From Gallionellaceae bacterium (GTDB lineage: Bacteria; Pseudomonadota; Gammaproteobacteria; Burkholderiales; Gallionellaceae), in NCBI GenBank assembly GCA_035260545.1, contig DATFUZ010000066.1:1-35772 (forward strand): a stretch of 35,772 nucleotides of DNA. Reading direction: 5' to 3'. Below the pieces are notes generated by a model, which saw only the letters and a list, made by a program, of their open reading frames with translations, did not search any database and was not told the DNA's origin. A program made the translations under genes and the position numbers. This document shows positions 2,404-19,622 of this stretch, one piece after another. How positions within the stretch are numbered: position 1 is the stretch's first letter; every line of letters begins with the position of its first letter.

Positions 2404-3996
<1,593 letters not shown>

Positions 3997-4133
3997 GACT
4001 ATCTAATGAGATAATGTTATATCTTTATTTATATAGTTTTCGCATTCTCCCACGACAGCCCAGCGCCTGCAATAATACATTTCCCCCGTTATTTCAAAAC
4101 ACTATTAACTTTTTTCGGCCCTGACCGGCGCGC

Positions 4134-4149
4134 TGGCACGCTTTTCGCA
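4134..4149 (+). promoter_or_regulatory. Sigma-54 (-24/-12) promoter TGGCACG-N4-TCGCA driving the rtc operon
   Basis: The sequence is TGGCACGCTTTTCGCA. The consensus is TGGCACG-N4-TTGCA, so there is one mismatch in the -12 element. It lies in the AT-rich divergent intergenic region between rtcR and the rtc genes, where RtcR-dependent promoters sit. Confidence 0.55.
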
Positions 4150-4323
4150 AATAGGTATGCGGTCGCCGACCTGACGCAAGGCCCACGGGAAAGGGGTTCT
4201 AAGCCCCGCCGGTGCGCTGCAGCCGGATTCGGTTCTGTCGTTGCGGTGTATGCCGCCCCGCAGGAAAGTGATCACTGGCTAGAGGGCAATTTCAGTGAGT
4301 ACTCATCCTCACGAGTTGCCTGC

Positions 4324-4397
4324 CACTGGATAGCTCAGTTCGGTAGAGCAATCGACTGTTAATCGATTAGTCGCGGGTTCGAATCCCGCTCCAAAAA
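4324..4397 (+). ncRNA. tRNA-Asn-like (GUU anticodon) non-coding RNA element. It has an intact D-arm, anticodon arm and T-arm, but a degenerate acceptor stem and no CCA. It is a Y-RNA-like tRNA mimic in the rtc leader.
   Basis: The D-arm is GCTC-AGTTCGGTA-GAGC. The anticodon stem ATCGA/TCGAT carries the loop CTGTTAA (4356-4362), with the GTT anticodon at 4358-4360. The T-arm is GCGGG-TTCGAAT-CCCGC. The would-be acceptor strands are CACTGGA and TCCAAAA, which pair for only 4 bp. The 3' side continues AACTG rather than CCA. The element is on the same strand as rtcB, about 160-175 nt downstream of the sigma-54 promoter. Confidence 0.6.
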
Positions 4398-4657
4398 CTG
4401 TCTTGAACAGGCAGCTTTTAAAAACGCAGTACCCGCCGGTTGTGGCATGCGCAAGCATCCACCGCCGGCCCGGCCCGGCGCCCGGACCGCGATTGCGGCA
4501 AGGCCATGCCGGCCCGCGGCAGCGATGTAAGCCCTCATGCTTCGGCACGTGGGCAAGCAGAGCCGCCGAGGGCTCGCGGAAGCCTCCCCGCAATCGCCGA
4601 ACGGGTTGCCCGCCGGGCCGGCGCCAGACCGGCACATTTACATAAGGAGAATGGAAC

Positions 4658-5803
4658 ATGGCTATGCTGAAGCGTTTTGTGATCAAGAAGAATGAAAAGG
4701 GCGCGTTGCTGCGCAACGGCGACTTTGAGCGCATCCTGAGCGCGGGCCGCCATTACTTCTTCGACCCGCTGGGCCAGCTTTCGGTGCAGGTGTGGAAGAT
4801 CGACACCCCCATGCACGACCTGGCGACGGTGGACTACCTGGCGGAGCATGATCCGGAGGAGTTGGATGAGCACTTTGTTTGCATGACGTTGAACGAGGAC
4901 CAGGCCGGCTTGCGCTACGAGAACGATGTGCTGGTGGAGGTGCTGCCTCCCGCGTCGCGCCTGGTGCTGTGGAAGGGTTTCATGAAGCACCGCCTGGAGG
5001 TGGTAGACCTGACGCAGGACTACACGGTGAAGCCCGCGCTGGTGCGCCACCTGGCGCAGACCGCCCCGCGCGGCCGCCTGGTGAACGGGCTGAACGGCGT
5101 GCTGGTGGCGCAGGTGCCGCCCTACCATGTGGGCATGCTGAAGGTGGACGGCAAGATCGAACGCCTGCTGCAGCCCGGCGTGGAAGCGTTCTGGCGCTTC
5201 AACCGCAACATCGACGTGGTGCTGGTGGATACCCGCCTGCAAGCCATGGAGGTGAGCGGGCAGGAGATCCTCACCCATGACAAGGTGGGGCTGCGCCTGA
5301 ACCTGGCGGCGACCTGGCGCTACACCGATGTGCTGCTGGCGCACGAGAAGCTGGCGCGTCCGGCCGAGCATCTGTACCGCGAGCTGCAGTTCGGCTTGCG
5401 TGAGGCAGTGGGCACGCGCACTCTGGACGAGCTGCTGGAAAACAAGCAGGTCATCGACGAGGTGGTGGGCGCCCACGTCGCGCAGAAGCTGGCCGGCTTC
5501 GGGCTGGAGGTAGGCGGTGTCGGCGTGAAGGACATCGTGCTGCCGGGCGAGATGAAGACCATCCTGGCCCAGGTGGTGGAGGCGGAGAAGGCGGCGCAAG
5601 CCAACGTGATCCGCCGCCGCGAGGAAACCGCCGCCACCCGCTCGCTGCTGAACACGGCGAAGGTGATGGAGGAAAACCCCGTCGCCCTGCGCCTGAAGGA
5701 GCTGGAGACGCTGGAACGTGTGGCCGAGCGTATCGACCGCATCAGCGTGTTCGGCGGTCTGGACCAGGTGCTGAATGGCCTGGTGCAGATCAAGGGCGCG
5801 TAA
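4658..5803 (+). CDS. SPFH/band-7 (slipin/flotillin-like) domain protein with a ~190-aa N-terminal extension and no predicted N-terminal transmembrane helix
   Basis: The C-terminal half has the typical SPFH/band-7 segments VKDIVLPGEMKTILAQVVEAEKAAQANVIRRREETAATRSLLNTAKV and ALRLKELETLERVAERIDRISVF. The ribosome-binding site AAGGAG lies 8 nt upstream of the ATG at 4658. I could see no hydrophobic N-terminal helix. Confidence 0.8.
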   Translation: MAMLKRFVIKKNEKGALLRNGDFERILSAGRHYFFDPLGQLSVQVWKIDTPMHDLATVDYLAEHDPEELDEHFVCMTLNEDQAGLRYENDVLVEVLPPASRLVLWKGFMKHRLEVVDLTQDYTVKPALVRHLAQTAPRGRLVNGLNGVLVAQVPPYHVGMLKVDGKIERLLQPGVEAFWRFNRNIDVVLVDTRLQAMEVSGQEILTHDKVGLRLNLAATWRYTDVLLAHEKLARPAEHLYRELQFGLREAVGTRTLDELLENKQVIDEVVGAHVAQKLAGFGLEVGGVGVKDIVLPGEMKTILAQVVEAEKAAQANVIRRREETAATRSLLNTAKVMEENPVALRLKELETLERVAERIDRISVFGGLDQVLNGLVQIKGA

Positions 5804-5863: not shown

Positions 5864-7081
5864 ATGGATTACCAACTGCTGGAAGTCGCAAACGGCAAGC
5901 CGATCAAGATGTGGACCGAAGGCGTGCCGGTGGAAGGCGAGGCGCAGAAGCAGCTGATGAACACGGCGCAGATGCCCTTCATCTACAAGCATCTGGCGGT
6001 GATGCCGGACGTGCACCTGGGTAAGGGCTCGACCATCGGCAGCGTGATTCCCACCCAGGGCGCGGTGATTCCCGCGGCCGTGGGCGTGGACATCGGCTGC
6101 GGGATGATGGCCGTGCGCACGACCCTTCAAGCCACGGACCTGCCGGATAACCTGCTGGGCCTGCGCTCCGCCATTGAGCGCGCGGTGCCGCACGGGCGCA
6201 GCAACTCCCGCGGCGGACGCGACAAGGGTGCGTGGGAAACGCCGCCGCAAAGCGTAGATGCGCATTGGGCGCAGTTGCTGCCGGGTTTCGAGCGCATCAC
6301 GGAGAAGCACCCCAAGCTCAAGAACACCAACAACCATAAGCATCTGGGGACGCTGGGAACTGGCAACCACTTCATCGAGGTGTGCCTGGACCAGGCGGAC
6401 GCGGTATGGTTCATGCTGCACTCCGGTTCGCGCGGGGTGGGGAATGCAATCGGCTCCCGCTTCATCGAGCTGGCGCAGCAGGATATGCGAGAGCACCTGG
6501 CCAACCTGCCGGACCGCGACCTGGCCTACCTGAAGGAAGGCACGCAGCACTTCGATGACTATATCGAGGCGGTGGGCTGGGCGCAAGATTTCGCCCGGCG
6601 TAACCGCGAGGTGATGATGGCCAATGTTGTGGCGGCCGCGCGCAGCGTGATCGCCAAGCCCTTCGAGACGGATGTGGCGGCGGTGAACTGCCACCACAAC
6701 TACGTGCAGAAGGAAACCCACTTCGGCGCGGAGGTGCTGGTGACCCGCAAGGGCGCGGTGTCGGCGCGGAAGGGGCAACTGGGCATCATCCCCGGCTCGA
6801 TGGGCGCGAAGAGCTACATCGTGCGCGGCCTGGGCAACGAGGAGTCGTTCTGCTCGTGCAGCCACGGCGCGGGACGCACCATGAGCCGGAACGAGGCCAA
6901 GCGCCGCTATACGGTGGACGACCAGATCAGCGCCACGGCGCATGTGGAATGCCGCAAGGATGCCGCGGTGATCGACGAGATCCCGATGGCCTACAAGGAC
7001 ATCGATGCGGTGATGCAGGCGCAGCGCGCGCTGGTCGAAGTGGTGCATACGCTGCGCCAGGTGGTCTGCGTGAAGGGCTGA
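5864..7081 (+). CDS. rtcB: RtcB RNA-splicing ligase (3'-phosphate/2',3'-cyclic phosphate to 5'-OH RNA ligase)
   Basis: The 405-aa product is near-identical in layout to E. coli RtcB. Matching segments are MPDVHLGKGSTIGSVIP, GVDIGCGM, HLGTLGTGNHFIE, CHHNYV, SCSHGAGR and the tail LRQVVCVKG. The ribosome-binding site GAGGAAG lies upstream. Confidence 0.95.
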   Translation: MDYQLLEVANGKPIKMWTEGVPVEGEAQKQLMNTAQMPFIYKHLAVMPDVHLGKGSTIGSVIPTQGAVIPAAVGVDIGCGMMAVRTTLQATDLPDNLLGLRSAIERAVPHGRSNSRGGRDKGAWETPPQSVDAHWAQLLPGFERITEKHPKLKNTNNHKHLGTLGTGNHFIEVCLDQADAVWFMLHSGSRGVGNAIGSRFIELAQQDMREHLANLPDRDLAYLKEGTQHFDDYIEAVGWAQDFARRNREVMMANVVAAARSVIAKPFETDVAAVNCHHNYVQKETHFGAEVLVTRKGAVSARKGQLGIIPGSMGAKSYIVRGLGNEESFCSCSHGAGRTMSRNEAKRRYTVDDQISATAHVECRKDAAVIDEIPMAYKDIDAVMQAQRALVEVVHTLRQVVCVKG

Positions 7082-7210
7082 AAAACTACTGCGGAAACCG
7101 CCTGCGGCGTTGTTCGGTGCTCGGCATCCTCATGTACTTAAACGTACACTGCGGTGCCTGCGCGCCGTGCGCCTTGCATCCGGCCTTCTCGCCACGTCTT
7201 TTTACCAACC

Positions 7211-7242
7211 GGAAGGTCCGGAGATTGACCTTCCTTTTTCTT
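7211..7242 (+). terminator. Rho-independent terminator or attenuator between rtcB and the downstream nucleotidyltransferase gene
   Basis: The stem is GGAAGGTC (7211-7218). The 8-nt loop is CGGAGATT. The second stem arm is GACCTTCC (7227-7234). A T-tract TTTTTCTT (7235-7242) follows immediately. Confidence 0.5.
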
Positions 7243-7243
7243 G

Positions 7244-7259
7244 AGACACAAAAGTGTGT
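7244..7259. promoter_or_regulatory. Perfect palindrome GACACA-AAAG-TGTGTC just upstream of the nucleotidyltransferase gene ribosome-binding site. It is a candidate operator or internal promoter element.
   Basis: The palindrome is 16 bp with 6-bp arms. It lies directly after the terminator and about 20 nt before the ribosome-binding site GGAGAG. Confidence 0.25.
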
Positions 7260-7278
7260 CAGTTTAATTCTGGAGAGC

Positions 7279-8100
7279 ATGATGGACAGCATCAAACCAA
7301 CCATACTCAGTGCACACCCGATACAGCCGGAGGTGCGCGCGCGCATCGTCGAGGCGCTGGAGCAGATCGAGGCGGAACACCAGGTAAAGGTGCTGTTCGC
7401 CTGCGAGTCGGGCAGCCGCGGCTGGGGCTTCGCCTCGCCGGACAGCGACTACGACGTGCGCTTCGTCTATGTGCACAAGCTGCCGTGGTACCTGACGGTG
7501 CACGCGCCGCGCGATGTGATCGAATTGCCGATCAGCGACGAGCTGGACGTGAGCGGCTGGGAACTGCGCAAGGCGCTGCAACTGCTGCGCAAATCCAACC
7601 CCACGCTGCTGGAATGGCTGGATTCGCCCGTGGTGTATCGCGAGGACGCGGCTTTCGCCGAGCGCATGCGCCGCTTCGTGCCGGAATTCTTCTCCGGACA
7701 GGGGGTGCGCCACCACTATCTGTCGATGGCGAAGAAGAACTTTCGCGGCTATCTGCAGGGCGAGAGCGTGCGGCTGAAGAAGTACCTCTACGTGCTGCGC
7801 CCGCTGCTGGCGGTGCGCTGGATAGACGGCGGGCGCGGCATGCCTCCGATGCGCTTTGCCGACCTGGCGCAGGCGACGGTGGACGACGCCGCGCTGGCGC
7901 ATGAAATCAACCGCCTGCTGGAAATCAAGATGCGCGCGGGCGAGGCGGAGTACAGCGCACGCTGGCCGGCCATCCACGACTTCATCGCGGCCGAGCTGGC
8001 GCGGGTGGAGCGCAGCCCGGAGCACGCGAGGCCGGCCGGGAGCACGGCGGTGCTGGACCGCTTCCTCGCTGAAACGGTGCGCGCGTTTTCGCGCGCCTGA
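7279..8100 (+). CDS. Pol-beta-superfamily nucleotidyltransferase domain protein (predicted NTase family associated with RNA-repair loci)
   Basis: The N-terminal segment is VLFACESGSRGWGFASPDSDYDVRFVY. This is the G[SG]-x9-13-D-x-D minimal nucleotidyltransferase signature. I chose the ATG at 7279, which has the ribosome-binding site GGAGAG 2-7 nt upstream. The ORF track extends further upstream, but that extension has GC-artefact composition. Confidence 0.8.
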   Translation: MMDSIKPTILSAHPIQPEVRARIVEALEQIEAEHQVKVLFACESGSRGWGFASPDSDYDVRFVYVHKLPWYLTVHAPRDVIELPISDELDVSGWELRKALQLLRKSNPTLLEWLDSPVVYREDAAFAERMRRFVPEFFSGQGVRHHYLSMAKKNFRGYLQGESVRLKKYLYVLRPLLAVRWIDGGRGMPPMRFADLAQATVDDAALAHEINRLLEIKMRAGEAEYSARWPAIHDFIAAELARVERSPEHARPAGSTAVLDRFLAETVRAFSRA

Positions 8101-8119
8101 GGATTAACACAGGAACTGG

Positions 8120-9148
8120 ATGGATGACATGAACATGCTGAATCTGGACGGATCGCAAGGCGAAGGCGGCGGGCAAATCCTGCGCAGCGCGCTGACGCTT
8201 TCCACGATCACCGGCACGCCGTTCCGCATCGAGCGCATTCGTGGGGGACGCGCCAAGCCTGGCTTGCTGCGCCAGCACCTGACGGCGGTCACGGCCGCCG
8301 CGGCAGTCAGCGGCGCGCAGGTGTCCGGGAACGCGCCGGGGTCGCAGACCCTGGAATTCGTTCCCGGCGCCATCCGCGGCGGCGACTACCGTTTCGACAT
8401 CGGCACGGCGGGGAGCTGCACGCTGGTGCTGCAGACGGTGCTGCCCGCGCTGTGGTTCGCCGACGGCCCGAGCACGATCACTGTCAGCGGCGGCACACAC
8501 AACGGCGCCGCGCCGCCCGCGGATTTCCTGATCCGCTCCTGGCTGCCGCTGATGCGGCGCATGGGGGTGGAGATGGACATCGAACTGGAGCGCCACGGGT
8601 TCTACCCGGCGGGCGGCGGGCGGGTGCGCGCATCGGTCACGCCTTGCGGGAGCTTGCTGCCCCTGCATCTCGAGGCGCGTGGAGAGCATATCGCCACCCG
8701 CGCCGTCGCGGTCGTCGCAGGTCTGCCGGCCGAGATTGCGGGCCGCGAACTGGATCATCTCGCGGCGACATTCAGCGAGGCGGAATGCGAAACACGGGTG
8801 CTGAGTTCGCGCGAAGGCCCGGGCAACGTGGTGATGGTCGAAATCAGCCACGCCAGCCACACCGAGGTCTTCACCGGTTTCGGCGAAAAGGGGCTGCCTG
8901 CCAAAACCGTGGCCGCACGGACCGCACACGCGGCCGCGAGCTGGCTGGCCAGCGGCGCAGCGGTGGGCGAGCATCTGGCGGACCAGCTGCTGCTGCCGAT
9001 GGCGCTGGCAAAGGGGGGCGCTTTTACGACCGCGCTGCTGTCCTCGCACACGCGGACCAACATCGGCGTGATCGAGAAGTTTCTGCCATTGGAGTTCGAT
9101 GTCGCGCAGGAAGACGGCATCCACCGGGTAAGCCTTACCCGGGAATAG
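8120..9148 (+). CDS. rtcA: RtcA RNA 3'-terminal phosphate cyclase
   Basis: The 342-aa product is collinear with E. coli RtcA. Matching segments are LDGSQGEGGGQILRSALTLS, RAKPGLLRQHLTAV, GGDYRFDIGTAGSCTLVLQTVLPALWFADGPS, RHGFYPAGGG and AVGEHLADQLLLPMALA. Confidence 0.9.
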   Translation: MDDMNMLNLDGSQGEGGGQILRSALTLSTITGTPFRIERIRGGRAKPGLLRQHLTAVTAAAAVSGAQVSGNAPGSQTLEFVPGAIRGGDYRFDIGTAGSCTLVLQTVLPALWFADGPSTITVSGGTHNGAAPPADFLIRSWLPLMRRMGVEMDIELERHGFYPAGGGRVRASVTPCGSLLPLHLEARGEHIATRAVAVVAGLPAEIAGRELDHLAATFSEAECETRVLSSREGPGNVVMVEISHASHTEVFTGFGEKGLPAKTVAARTAHAAASWLASGAAVGEHLADQLLLPMALAKGGAFTTALLSSHTRTNIGVIEKFLPLEFDVAQEDGIHRVSLTRE

Positions 9149-13380: not shown

Positions 13381-15231
13381 ATGAATGTATTTTATGAAGA
13401 GGACGGGGGCTTCAAGGTCGGCACCGTCTTGACGGACAACACGACCTCGATGCACGTGGAAAGCCTGCACGGCAAGCGCAGCAAGATCAAGGCAGCCAAT
13501 GTGCTGTTGCGATTTACCCAGCCCGGCCTGAGCGAGTTCCTGGCTCAGGCGGAGGACGTTGCCGGCGGGATGGATGTGGAGTTTCTCTGGGAGTGCAGCC
13601 CGCCGGAGGAATTCGCCTTCGAAACGCTGGCGGCGGAGTATTTCGGCCACCCCCCCAGCCCGGCGGAGGCCGCGGGCGCGCTGATCCGACTGCATTCGGC
13701 CCCGATGTACTTCTACAAGAAGGGCAAGGGCCATTACAAGGCGGCGCCGCCGGATGCGCTCAAGGCAGCCCTGGCCGGTGCGGAGAGGAAGCGCTTGCTC
13801 GCGGAGCAGCAGGCGCAATTCACGGCGCAACTGTCGGACTTCACCCTGCCCGCGGAATTCGAGGGCAAGATACCGGAGCTGCTGTACAAGCCCGACCGCA
13901 ATACGATTGAAGTGAAGGCGCTTGAGGCGGCGTGCGCCGCGACCCATCTTTCGGCGGCGCACCTGCTGGAGCGCTGCGGGGCGATCCCGTCCAGCCACGA
14001 CTATCATTTGCAGCGCTTCCTGTTCGAGCATTTCCCGCGGGGCACGGGTTTTCCGCAGGTGAGCGTGGACATGCACCCGGAGCTGCCGCTGGCCGAGGCG
14101 CGCGCCTTCAGCATAGACGACGCGGCAACGACGGAAATCGACGATGCCTTCTCGGTGGTGCCGCTTCCCGGCGGCAACTGGCGCGTGGGCGTGCACATTG
14201 CGGCGCCCGCCTTGACCATCGCGCCCGGCTCGCCCGTGGACGAGATCGCGGGGCAACGGCTGTCCACCGTCTATATGCCGGGCAGCAAGATCACGATGCT
14301 GCCGGACAACGTGGTGCAGGCCTTCACCCTGAACGAGGATACGACCTGCCCGGCCGTGTCCATGTACCTGGAAGTGGATGCGGACACGCTGGAGATCAGG
14401 GGCACAGAAAGCCGCATCGAGCGCATCCACATCGCGAACAATCTGCGCCACGACACGCTGGAGCCGCTGTTCAACGAGGCGACACTCGCTGCGGGCAAAC
14501 GTGACTATCCCTACGCCGCCGAACTCGCGCTGCTGTGGAATCTCGCCGGCAAGCTGGAAGCGTTGCGCGGGAAATCCGCCGATAGCAACGCGCAGCAAAT
14601 GGATTATAATTTCCATGTTGAAGACGACCGCATCGCCATCAGCGAACGCAGGCGCGGCTCGCCGATAGACAAGGTGGTGAGCGAGCTGATGATCTTCGTC
14701 AACAGCGCGTGGGGCAAGCTGCTGGCCGAGCACAATGCAGCCGGGATTTACCGCACCCAGAACGGCGGCAAGGTCAAGATGAGCACGGTGCCCGGACCGC
14801 ATCAGGGGCTGGGCGTGGCGCAATATCTGTGGTCGAGTTCGCCGCTGCGGCGCTACGTGGATCTCATCAACCAGCGCCAGATCGCGGCCGTGCTGCGCGG
14901 GGAAACGCCGCCCTATGCGCCGAATGATCCGGCGATCTTCGCCGCGATGCGCGATTTCGACGCCGCTTATGCGGTCTACAACGAGTTCCAGCGCGGCATG
15001 GAGCGCTACTGGTGCCTGCGCTGGCTGCTGCAGGAGAACGTGAAGGAGGCCGAGGCCGTGGTGCAGCGCGAAAACCTGGTGAAGCTGGCGCGCATTCCGT
15101 TTTACGCACGCATTCCGTCCCTGCCGGAATCGCCGCCCAATACCCGCGTCATGCTGGAGATCGGCGACATCGACCTGCTGGACATGGAATTCAAGGCGCG
15201 ATACATCAATACCGTGGAGGCAACTGCTTGA
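13381..15231 (+). CDS. RNB-domain 3'-5' exoribonuclease (RNase II/R family)
   Basis: The RNB catalytic motif FSIDDAATTEIDDAFSV is present. The C-terminal signature YLWSSSPLRRYVDLINQRQ matches the RNase II/R SPIRRY region. The product is 616 aa. Confidence 0.85.
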   Translation: MNVFYEEDGGFKVGTVLTDNTTSMHVESLHGKRSKIKAANVLLRFTQPGLSEFLAQAEDVAGGMDVEFLWECSPPEEFAFETLAAEYFGHPPSPAEAAGALIRLHSAPMYFYKKGKGHYKAAPPDALKAALAGAERKRLLAEQQAQFTAQLSDFTLPAEFEGKIPELLYKPDRNTIEVKALEAACAATHLSAAHLLERCGAIPSSHDYHLQRFLFEHFPRGTGFPQVSVDMHPELPLAEARAFSIDDAATTEIDDAFSVVPLPGGNWRVGVHIAAPALTIAPGSPVDEIAGQRLSTVYMPGSKITMLPDNVVQAFTLNEDTTCPAVSMYLEVDADTLEIRGTESRIERIHIANNLRHDTLEPLFNEATLAAGKRDYPYAAELALLWNLAGKLEALRGKSADSNAQQMDYNFHVEDDRIAISERRRGSPIDKVVSELMIFVNSAWGKLLAEHNAAGIYRTQNGGKVKMSTVPGPHQGLGVAQYLWSSSPLRRYVDLINQRQIAAVLRGETPPYAPNDPAIFAAMRDFDAAYAVYNEFQRGMERYWCLRWLLQENVKEAEAVVQRENLVKLARIPFYARIPSLPESPPNTRVMLEIGDIDLLDMEFKARYINTVEATA

Positions 15232-19532: not shown

Positions 19533-19622
<90 letters not shown>

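Follow-up and report, generated by a model that had tools for sequence, protein, structure and literature searches.

A tRNA-shaped module in the leader of a Band-7/RtcB RNA-repair operon of a Gallionellaceae bacterium, a very probable member of the b7a-tRNA family

The DNA analysed, referred to below as the window, is a stretch of 35,772 nucleotides (nt) from a Gallionellaceae bacterium (assembly GCA_035260545.1, contig DATFUZ010000066.1), and the element under study is a tRNA-shaped sequence located at positions 4324-4397 of its forward strand. The element lies in the leader, approximately 500 nt long, of an operon for RNA repair, in which the gene order is rtcR (divergent), leader, Band-7/SPFH gene, rtcB, rlaP and rtcA. 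The rtcR gene (2404-3996, reverse strand) encodes a sigma-54 enhancer-binding activator with an RtcR/CARF N-terminal domain (Pfam RtcR, E 2.6e-88; Sigma54_activat, E 1.5e-49). The forward strand carries the Band-7/SPFH (slipin) gene at 4658-5803 (Pfam Band_7, E 9e-29), whose product is predicted to be soluble, the RNA ligase gene rtcB at 5864-7081 (Pfam RtcB, E 2e-132), rlaP, for an RNA-ligase-associated nucleotidyltransferase of the Pol-beta family, at 7279-8100 (Pfam RlaP PF10127, E 2e-98), and the RNA 3'-phosphate cyclase gene rtcA at 8120-9148 (Pfam RTC, E 3e-83). The first gene of the operon is the Band-7/SPFH gene, not rtcB, and it begins 260 nt downstream of the tRNA-shaped element, on the same strand.

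A sigma-54-type -24/-12 element, TGGCACGCTTTTCGC (TGGCACG-N4-TCGC), was read at 4134-4148 of the forward strand. Judging from its consensus and from the synteny with rtcR, it probably functions as the promoter of the operon; among the related loci described below, such an element is present wherever rtcR adjoins, and in every one checked with rtcR it is located 454-566 nt upstream of the Band-7 start. Together with the divergent rtcR gene, the sigma-54-type promoter implies control by RtcR. Neither a terminator-like nor a sigma-70-like site was found between 4134-4148 and the Band-7 gene. An initial annotation, made from the sequence without database searches, had placed the element in the leader of an rtc operon, and this was borne out by the divergent rtcR, the -24/-12 element and the lack of a terminator before the first gene.

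Within this multi-domain leader two tRNA-like modules stand in tandem; the element is the second of them and is designated module 2. Read from 5' to 3', it consists of the acceptor strand CACTGGA, the dinucleotide TA, the D arm (stem GCTC/GAGC, loop AGTTCGGTA), a single A, the anticodon arm (stem ATCGA/TCGAT, loop CTGTTAA with the triplet GTT), the variable loop TAGTC, the T arm (stem GCGGG/CCCGC, loop TTCGAAT) and the acceptor strand TCCAAAA, followed by A. The acceptor stem comprises four base pairs (4327-4330/4390-4393), and the D, anticodon and T arms occupy 4333-4349, 4351-4367 and 4373-4389, respectively. The acceptor strands pair solely from 4:69 to 7:66 (U-A, G-C, G-C and A-U), with mismatches at 1:72 (C-A), 2:71 (A-A) and 3:70 (C-A); the sequence on the 3' side is A-CTG... 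instead of NCCA, and CCA is not encoded. The nucleotides that build the tRNA elbow, U8, A14, G18G19 and GGTTCGAATCC, are present, and the elbow consensus of the family (U8, A14, G18G19, GGTTCGAnTCC) is thus intact in the window copy.

A tRNA-Asn(gtt) was called by ARAGORN at 4324-4398, and the Rfam tRNA model matched with 58.5 bits (gathering score 29, E 2.5e-10). This match is local, covering model positions 4-67, which means that the outer three acceptor pairs were dropped from it. An ordinary tRNA gene of the same window, tRNA-Leu(tag) at 19534-19618 of the reverse strand, gave by contrast a full-length match of 57.7 bits and has a seven-pair acceptor stem. The resemblance of 4324-4397 to a cloverleaf is far beyond chance. 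Direct reading verified each detail that the initial annotation had given: the canonical arms, the D loop, the CUGUUAA loop with GUU, the TTCGAAT T loop, the four of seven acceptor pairs and the missing CCA. The comparison with Rfam models by Infernal that it had proposed likewise returned the tRNA model, though only locally.

The same element was searched for in other genomes. From thousands of close homologues of the Band-7 protein, 20 were aligned, and 80 genomic loci from Betaproteobacteria and Pseudomonas were collected. In most of them a tRNA-like sequence was reported by ARAGORN approximately 250-350 nt upstream of the Band-7 gene, the "anticodon" assigned to it changing from locus to locus in nearly all cases. 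When the T loop was used as an anchor, the element was present in all 78 loci with enough upstream sequence, about 280 nt before Band-7; the two loci in which it was not seen have only 107 and 259 nt of upstream sequence. The cloverleaf alignment comprised 76 distinct sequences with a mean column identity of 70%, and 91% of its cells were paired. Its covariation score was 0.369, compared with 0.133 in shuffled alignments (none of 500 reached the observed value) and with values not above 0.10 when the partners were slid. No variation was seen in the D stem, the T stem shows compensatory changes at three of its five pairs, and the anticodon stem is 98.7% paired, with double changes at all five pairs.

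Since the arms are conserved with compensatory changes, module 2 is an RNA under selection rather than a remnant in decay, and an origin as a decaying pseudo-tRNA was ruled out on these grounds. The loss of the arm structures in homologous loci, which according to the initial annotation would mark such a remnant, was therefore not what was found; its description of a retained tRNA-shaped module agrees with the conservation and covariation of the arms in the 76 loci.

The state of the acceptor end is also shared. Pairs 4:69 to 7:66 are formed in at least 95% of the family copies, and 5:68 switches between GC (50 copies) and CG (25 copies), while pair 3:70 is formed in 65%, pair 2:71 in 47-49% and pair 1:72 in 18-19% (approximately 81% open). 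All seven pairs are present in just 9 of 79 copies, the commonest state being the four pairs that are found in the window, and no copy of the family has CCA after position 73. The short, open acceptor end is a trait of the family and not a peculiarity of the window. Immediately 3' of module 2, at 4398-4414 of the forward strand, comparative pairing and the minimum free energy (MFE) fold place a hairpin, CUGUCU-UGAAC-AGGCAG, designated hairpin D. It begins at tRNA position 74-75. Of the 76 loci, 71 have this hairpin, their stems comprising 33 distinct sequences, and it covaries: columns 318:328 of the leader alignment hold CG in 16 sequences, UA in 16 and UG in 3. A different helix had been suggested in the initial annotation, in which flanking CTGCC and GGCAG segments would extend the acceptor by five pairs. 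The upstream flank pairs fully in only 14 of 71 loci, and this helix was rejected, the local partner of GGCAG (4410-4414) being CUGUC (4398-4402) in the covarying hairpin. The CTGCC of the window is in turn the 3' strand and NCCA-like tail of the preceding minihelix, module 1.

These data bear on the label that annotation pipelines assign, namely that of a genuine though unusual tRNA gene, as in tRNA-Arg4 (PA4581.1) of Pseudomonas aeruginosa. Both ARAGORN and Rfam score module 2 as a tRNA, an encoded CCA is dispensable in bacterial tRNA genes, and nine orthologues do possess a complete acceptor stem. That the element is a working tRNA gene is nevertheless hardly credible, given the four of seven acceptor pairs in the window, the opening of 1:72 across most of the family, the start of a hairpin immediately past position 73, the strict synteny with Band-7 and the lack of conservation of the anticodon and of the length of its loop, described next. 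The initial annotation had already held that this is not a functional tRNA, and the open acceptor end and unconserved anticodon support it; module 2 presumably neither decodes nor accepts an amino acid. The identities that pipelines give to such elements (Asn here, Arg in P. aeruginosa) are arbitrary, and tRNA gene counts and inferences on codon usage are distorted as a result.

Anticodon loops of 7 nt are present in 39 of the 76 copies and carry 18 different triplets, among them CAT in nine and GTT in three. In another 24 copies the loop has 4 nt (UUCG in nine, GAAA in six, GCAA in three, GCGA in two and other sequences in four), so that 20 of these 24 are tetraloops of the UUCG or GNRA type; the remaining 13 loops have 3, 5, 6 or 8-17 nt. 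The anticodon arm is kept as a helix and the content of its loop is free to vary. As neither the triplet nor the loop length is conserved, the role proposed in the initial annotation, that of a tRNA-Asn decoy or sentinel, loses its basis as the function of the family; a lineage-specific use is less strictly ruled out. According to that proposal, anticodon nucleases that attack GUN anticodons would cut the element, and the halves with cyclic phosphate ends would activate RtcR or be repaired by RtcB. RtcR does respond to tRNA halves with 2',3'-cyclic phosphate ends (PMC7790460), half of the orthologues have a 7-nt loop with Y32-U33 and R37-A38, and the diversity of triplets could in principle reflect an arms race. 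On the other hand, GTT is restricted to three copies, and the 24 four-nt loops and 13 loops of other length cannot mimic an anticodon loop, although the rest of the module is conserved in them. The YrlA RNA of Salmonella is not cleaved by an SOS-induced anticodon nuclease. Furthermore, a sentinel produced only after activation of RtcR would form a positive feedback and could not be the initial sensor. A decoy or sentinel role is accordingly regarded as quite improbable, and the Asn/GUN identity was abandoned.

Module 1 is a tRNA-like minihelix at 4284-4325 of the forward strand, as indicated by the T-loop spacing, the NCCA junction and the MFE and centroid folds. In the window its stem GGGCAA/TTGCCT surrounds the hairpin GTGAG-TACTCATC-CTCAC and is followed by G-CCA. 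Two T-loop motifs, 72-76 nt apart, are present in nearly all loci, while the window has one: the T-loop consensus of module 1 has been lost there and the T arm remodelled. Most relatives keep GGTTCGAnTCC; CCGGGTTCGATTCCCGG is retained in module 1 of the closest relative (L001) and of most of the other loci. In most Betaproteobacteria module 1 is a minihelix with an acceptor-like stem of 5-7 pairs, a short insert and a T arm; in Pseudomonas it is a full cloverleaf that directly abuts module 2. At the junction of the two modules an NCCA-like sequence was found in 49 of 76 loci (GCCA, 4322-4325, in the window), often 7-8 nt past the T stem of module 1, as at the 3' end of a mature tRNA. The CA of this CCA often coincides with nominal positions 1-2 of module 2, and this accounts in part for those two positions being unpaired.

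The structure of the whole leader was derived with RNAalifold and pair counts from an alignment of 40 leaders, each reaching from the predicted start site as far as the ATG. Domain A (4171-4263, forward strand) is formed by nested hairpins, with helices at 4188-4210 and 4211-4254 closed by 4171-4182/4255-4263. Helices 3 and 4 of this domain are 96% and 93% paired, with double changes at 6 of 7 and 11 of 15 pairs. Domain E (4435-4633, forward strand) is a long, branched, extended helix comprising 4435-4440/4628-4633, a GCAA-capped hairpin at 4442-4462, 4463-4473/4613-4623 and 4475-4504/4582-4612. Its helices 12, 15 and 16 are 99%, 95% and 85% paired, with double changes at 3 of 6, 11 of 11 and 23 of 24 pairs. 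In total the leader consensus has 109 pairs, of which 83 have changed on both sides, and 90% of its cells are paired. The covariation score was 0.412, against 0.186 in shuffles and at most 0.10 with slid partners, for a consensus structure derived from the same alignment. Apart from tRNA, no Rfam family reached its gathering score in the window or in 12 whole related loci, and none matched 4000-4700 convincingly up to E = 10; a known-family identity for domains A and E was rejected on this basis.

Such an architecture could have a role in cis only. In this explanation the tandem modules would bring in RNase P, RNase Z or the CCA-adding enzyme, so that the leader is cut from the Band-7/rtcB mRNA, or would guard the 5' end of that mRNA, with no role in trans. 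It is consistent with the location of the modules in the 5' untranslated region (UTR), with no terminator before the first gene, with their direct contact and with the NCCA-like junction; the YrlA RNA of Mycobacterium smegmatis is cut by RNase P and receives CCA (PMC4201824). Nevertheless, domains A and E, which covary heavily, would be superfluous for a cleavage signal, and module 2, usually with 4-6 acceptor pairs and 1:72 open, would be a poor substrate for RNase P, for which a seven-pair stem is a major determinant (Chen et al.). Cleavage would also suit a structural tRNA mimic acting in trans, as the step by which the RNA is released. Processing or stability in cis as the whole function is considered unlikely.

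Comparison of the loci indicated which gene the RNA accompanies. The loci of the Sphaerotilaceae type have no rtcR and no sigma-54 promoter, yet both modules and domain A are kept; their leaders are located after an HNH endonuclease gene and an array of up to 13 tRNA genes. In the Roseateles-type loci L064 and L038 the tRNA-like element and Band-7 are followed by an open reading frame (ORF) with weak similarity to ClpP (SDH_protease, 7180-8208), and no RtcB was found within 6 kb. A scan of metagenomes that started from the RNA, using the domain E motif, gave 52 hits. The 25 hits with upstream T loops were true leaders, and Band-7 was present in every one of these with enough downstream sequence; the other 27 were discarded as unrelated chance matches, mostly in GC-rich coding sequence. 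As the element persists in the absence of rtcR, of the sigma-54 promoter or of RtcB, the tightest link is that between the RNA and Band-7. The RtcB-type neighbourhood of the window (RtcB, RlaP and RtcA downstream, RtcR upstream) is not universal in the family.

The tRNA arrays of the rtcR-less Sphaerotilaceae-type loci consist of 5-14 genes that share the strand of Band-7 and precede it by 1-2.5 kb, and were observed in L041, L038, L042, L055, L056, L062, L074-L076 and L078. For the array of L041 (3135-4813 and 4856-5428), scores of 33-63 bits were obtained with the Rfam tRNA model, and the HNH endonuclease gene comes after it. An island for tRNA supply and RNA repair is a possible reading of these gene arrangements.

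The leader could alternatively be a cis-regulatory sensor, in which the 5' UTR would bind RtcB, RtcA, a tRNA enzyme or a damaged tRNA and thereby tune the translation of Band-7 and rtcB or transcript elongation. Its position relative to the Band-7 start and the Shine-Dalgarno (SD) sequence is constant, the base of domain E ending approximately 12-25 nt before the SD, and the RNA tracks Band-7 even where RtcB or RtcR is absent; both observations would fit a sensor. Against this, neither a conserved pairing that sequesters the SD nor a conserved leader terminator was found in the comparison of the 40 leaders or in the window, which ruled out a riboswitch-like logic of these two kinds, and no known riboswitch or leader family was matched in Rfam. 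A sensor function is rated as rather improbable.

The Band-7 protein of the window has 381 amino acids and an isoelectric point of about 6, without a transmembrane segment (maximum KD19 1.2). An AlphaFold2 model, with a predicted local distance difference test (pLDDT) value of 70, shows a beta-rich N-terminal region, an SPFH domain and a long helix; residues 1-135 are modelled with a pLDDT of about 88 as beta-sheet repeats and have no Pfam match. When the model was compared with the PDB by Foldseek, the cages of stomatin, HflK/C and prohibitin aligned over approximately 215-250 columns and the major vault protein (MVP) over 408-473 columns, with E from about 4e-9 to 3e-6 and low TM-scores. The model suggests a soluble, oligomeric, vault-like scaffold, a matter of resemblance only. 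With regard to its gene, two in-frame ATG codons are present, at 4658 and 4664; homologues begin with MLKRF..., which corresponds to 4664, and the SD sequence AAGGAG at 4645-4650 is compatible with either.

Taken with its synteny, the cloverleaf at 4324-4397 very probably belongs to the b7a-tRNA family, a class of tRNA-resembling non-coding RNA predicted in Band-7/RtcB operons. The reading favoured here, which is given about an even chance, is that module 2 is a b7a-tRNA copy acting as a non-decoding structural mimic, the RNA of a Band-7 complex that assists RNA repair. The mimic would be released by processing or kept within the leader RNA. It would form a complex with the Band-7 protein, which is predicted to be oligomeric and to resemble the vault protein, and would serve there as RNA component or as tRNA-shaped handle. 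This complex might scaffold or modulate the repair of damaged tRNA-like substrates by RtcB, RlaP and RtcA; in vitro, RlaP extends the 3'-OH ends of RNA by added nucleotides (PMC12776372). The analogy would be YrlA with Ro60, as in the rsr-yrlBA-rtcBA operon of Salmonella. This ribonucleoprotein-cofactor mechanism, which follows Burroughs and Aravind, is proposed tentatively and is somewhat doubtful. A broader version, in which the whole leader would be one multi-domain non-coding RNA that forms a vault-like ribonucleoprotein cage with soluble Band-7 and captures damaged tRNAs or presents them to RtcB, RlaP and RtcA, with the ClpP-like protease as an alternative to RtcB, is not likely.

Several points weigh against a b7a-tRNA that acts with Band-7. 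Both the binding of the RNA to the protein and any excision of the tRNA-like module from the mRNA are suppositions, and the fixed position in the 5' UTR is equally well explained by a role in cis in processing, stability or translation. No recognised RNA-binding domain was found in the Band-7 protein by Pfam, and the protein is mildly acidic; its AlphaFold2 model is only moderate, with a poor C-terminus, and the TM-scores with the vault protein are low. YrlA, the supposed analogue, has no established function of its own (bioRxiv 10.1101/312249). Finally, the level of PA4581.1 was similar with and without rtc induction (PMC13637947), at odds with the expectation for a leader that depends strictly on sigma-54.

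The data bear on the question of what bacterial RtcB operons repair and why tRNA-shaped RNA recurs there, as YrlA with Ro60 and as b7a-tRNA with Band-7. The comparative anatomy sharpens the target: the conserved parts are the elbow and the short, open acceptor end, not the anticodon.

Other features of the window were as follows. An ORF at 7254-7904, considered as the gene between rtcB and rtcA, was rejected as being in the wrong frame; the frame of 6856-8100 is conserved across loci and corresponds to RlaP. The spacer of 197 nt between rtcB and rlaP contains a terminator-like hairpin at 7211-7244 (GGAAGGTC-CGGAGATT-GACCTTCC, then TTTTTCTT) and a second, small hairpin at 7245-7260, which could mediate attenuation of transcription or differential expression of rlaP and rtcA. 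A gene for an RNB-domain exoribonuclease (RNase II/R family) is present at 13381-15231 on the same strand, approximately 4 kb downstream of the operon, a link that may be incidental. Upstream of rtcR, ORFs were observed at 191-1372 and 1529-1963; a match to PIN-TPR-GreABC below threshold (27.1 bits, cut-off 27.8) and an LRAT/NlpC-P60-like ORF were found there, and the genes of this region may belong to a conflict system. Otherwise the window carries ordinary chromosomal genes: sucAB, gltA, sdhA and genes for signalling proteins, besides that for the exoribonuclease.

Among known systems, YrlA shares with the window element the mimicry of tRNA, the conserved elbow nucleotides of the D and T arms and the location in an RtcB operon controlled by RtcR and sigma-54, and it is not known to decode. 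In YrlA, however, the 5' and 3' ends form a stem that binds Ro60 at the place of the anticodon arm, and the "acceptor" is a closed stem-loop (PMC4201824). The window element has an intact, covarying anticodon arm and an open acceptor end, and no rsr/TROVE gene was found by Pfam in the genes of the operon or in ten other large ORFs that were scanned. No Y-RNA family was among the Rfam hits on 4000-4700 up to E = 10, the Y-RNA models of Rfam 15 not having been checked. Membership of the Y RNA/YrlA group was rejected in view of the different topology and of the lack of a TROVE gene among the ORFs scanned and of a Y-RNA family among these Rfam hits. The likeness to YrlA pointed out in the initial annotation is upheld as a conceptual kinship. 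Its remark that there is no Ro60 partner agrees with the lack of TROVE in the ORFs scanned; it overlooks, on the other hand, the partner predicted in the literature, namely the Band-7/SPFH protein encoded alongside.

The eukaryotic vault resembles the window system in an alignment with MVP that spans over 400 columns (E about 4e-9), in the succession of beta-repeats, SPFH-like shoulder and long helix, and in a small structured RNA that is genetically tied to the protein. The Band-7 protein of the window is much shorter than MVP, and the likeness comes from a predicted model, with low TM-scores. Vault RNAs are not tRNA-like cloverleaves and are bound via TEP1 rather than via MVP.

PA4581.1 of P. 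aeruginosa is located between rtcR (PA4581) and PA4582-PA4585 (PMC13637947), and PA4582 is the SPFH protein PaFlo8 (PMC13086221). It has no CCA and an atypical D loop, it has been detected by quantitative reverse transcription PCR (PMC13637947, 2026), and it was one of the genes with the strongest up-regulation in a late isolate from cystic fibrosis studied by RNA-seq (PMC8743555). It shares with the window element the genomic slot, the lack of an encoded CCA and odd tRNA features, and differs in its Arg instead of Asn "anticodon". Related Pseudomonas loci carry homologous modules, with an acceptor stem of 5-6 pairs in module 2 and a complete module 1 with a D arm.

The closest counterpart is b7a-tRNA itself, a non-coding RNA resembling tRNA that, according to the account in bioRxiv 10.1101/312249, was predicted by Burroughs and Aravind (Nucleic Acids Research, 2016) in Band-7/RtcB RNA-repair operons; in the summary given there by Wang et al. 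(2018), its gene adjoins those for a Band-7 domain protein and RtcB. The novelty implied by the initial annotation was thus not sustained, the class having been predicted in 2016 according to that account and the P. aeruginosa copy having been discussed as well (PMC13637947). The 2016 article may already contain the tandem arrangement of the modules, the NCCA junction between them, the anticodon arms capped by tetraloops, leader domains A and E and a link to Band-7 that holds without RtcB. By comparison with the summarised description, the window element is alike in its cloverleaf and in adjoining Band-7 and RtcB, it aligns base for base with 75 others, and no defining feature differs, module 1 of the window being without a T loop. 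Its neighbours include, beyond the Band-7 and RtcB genes of b7a-tRNA, those for RlaP, RtcA and RtcR. No new class is added by the window; its element very probably belongs to one already described.

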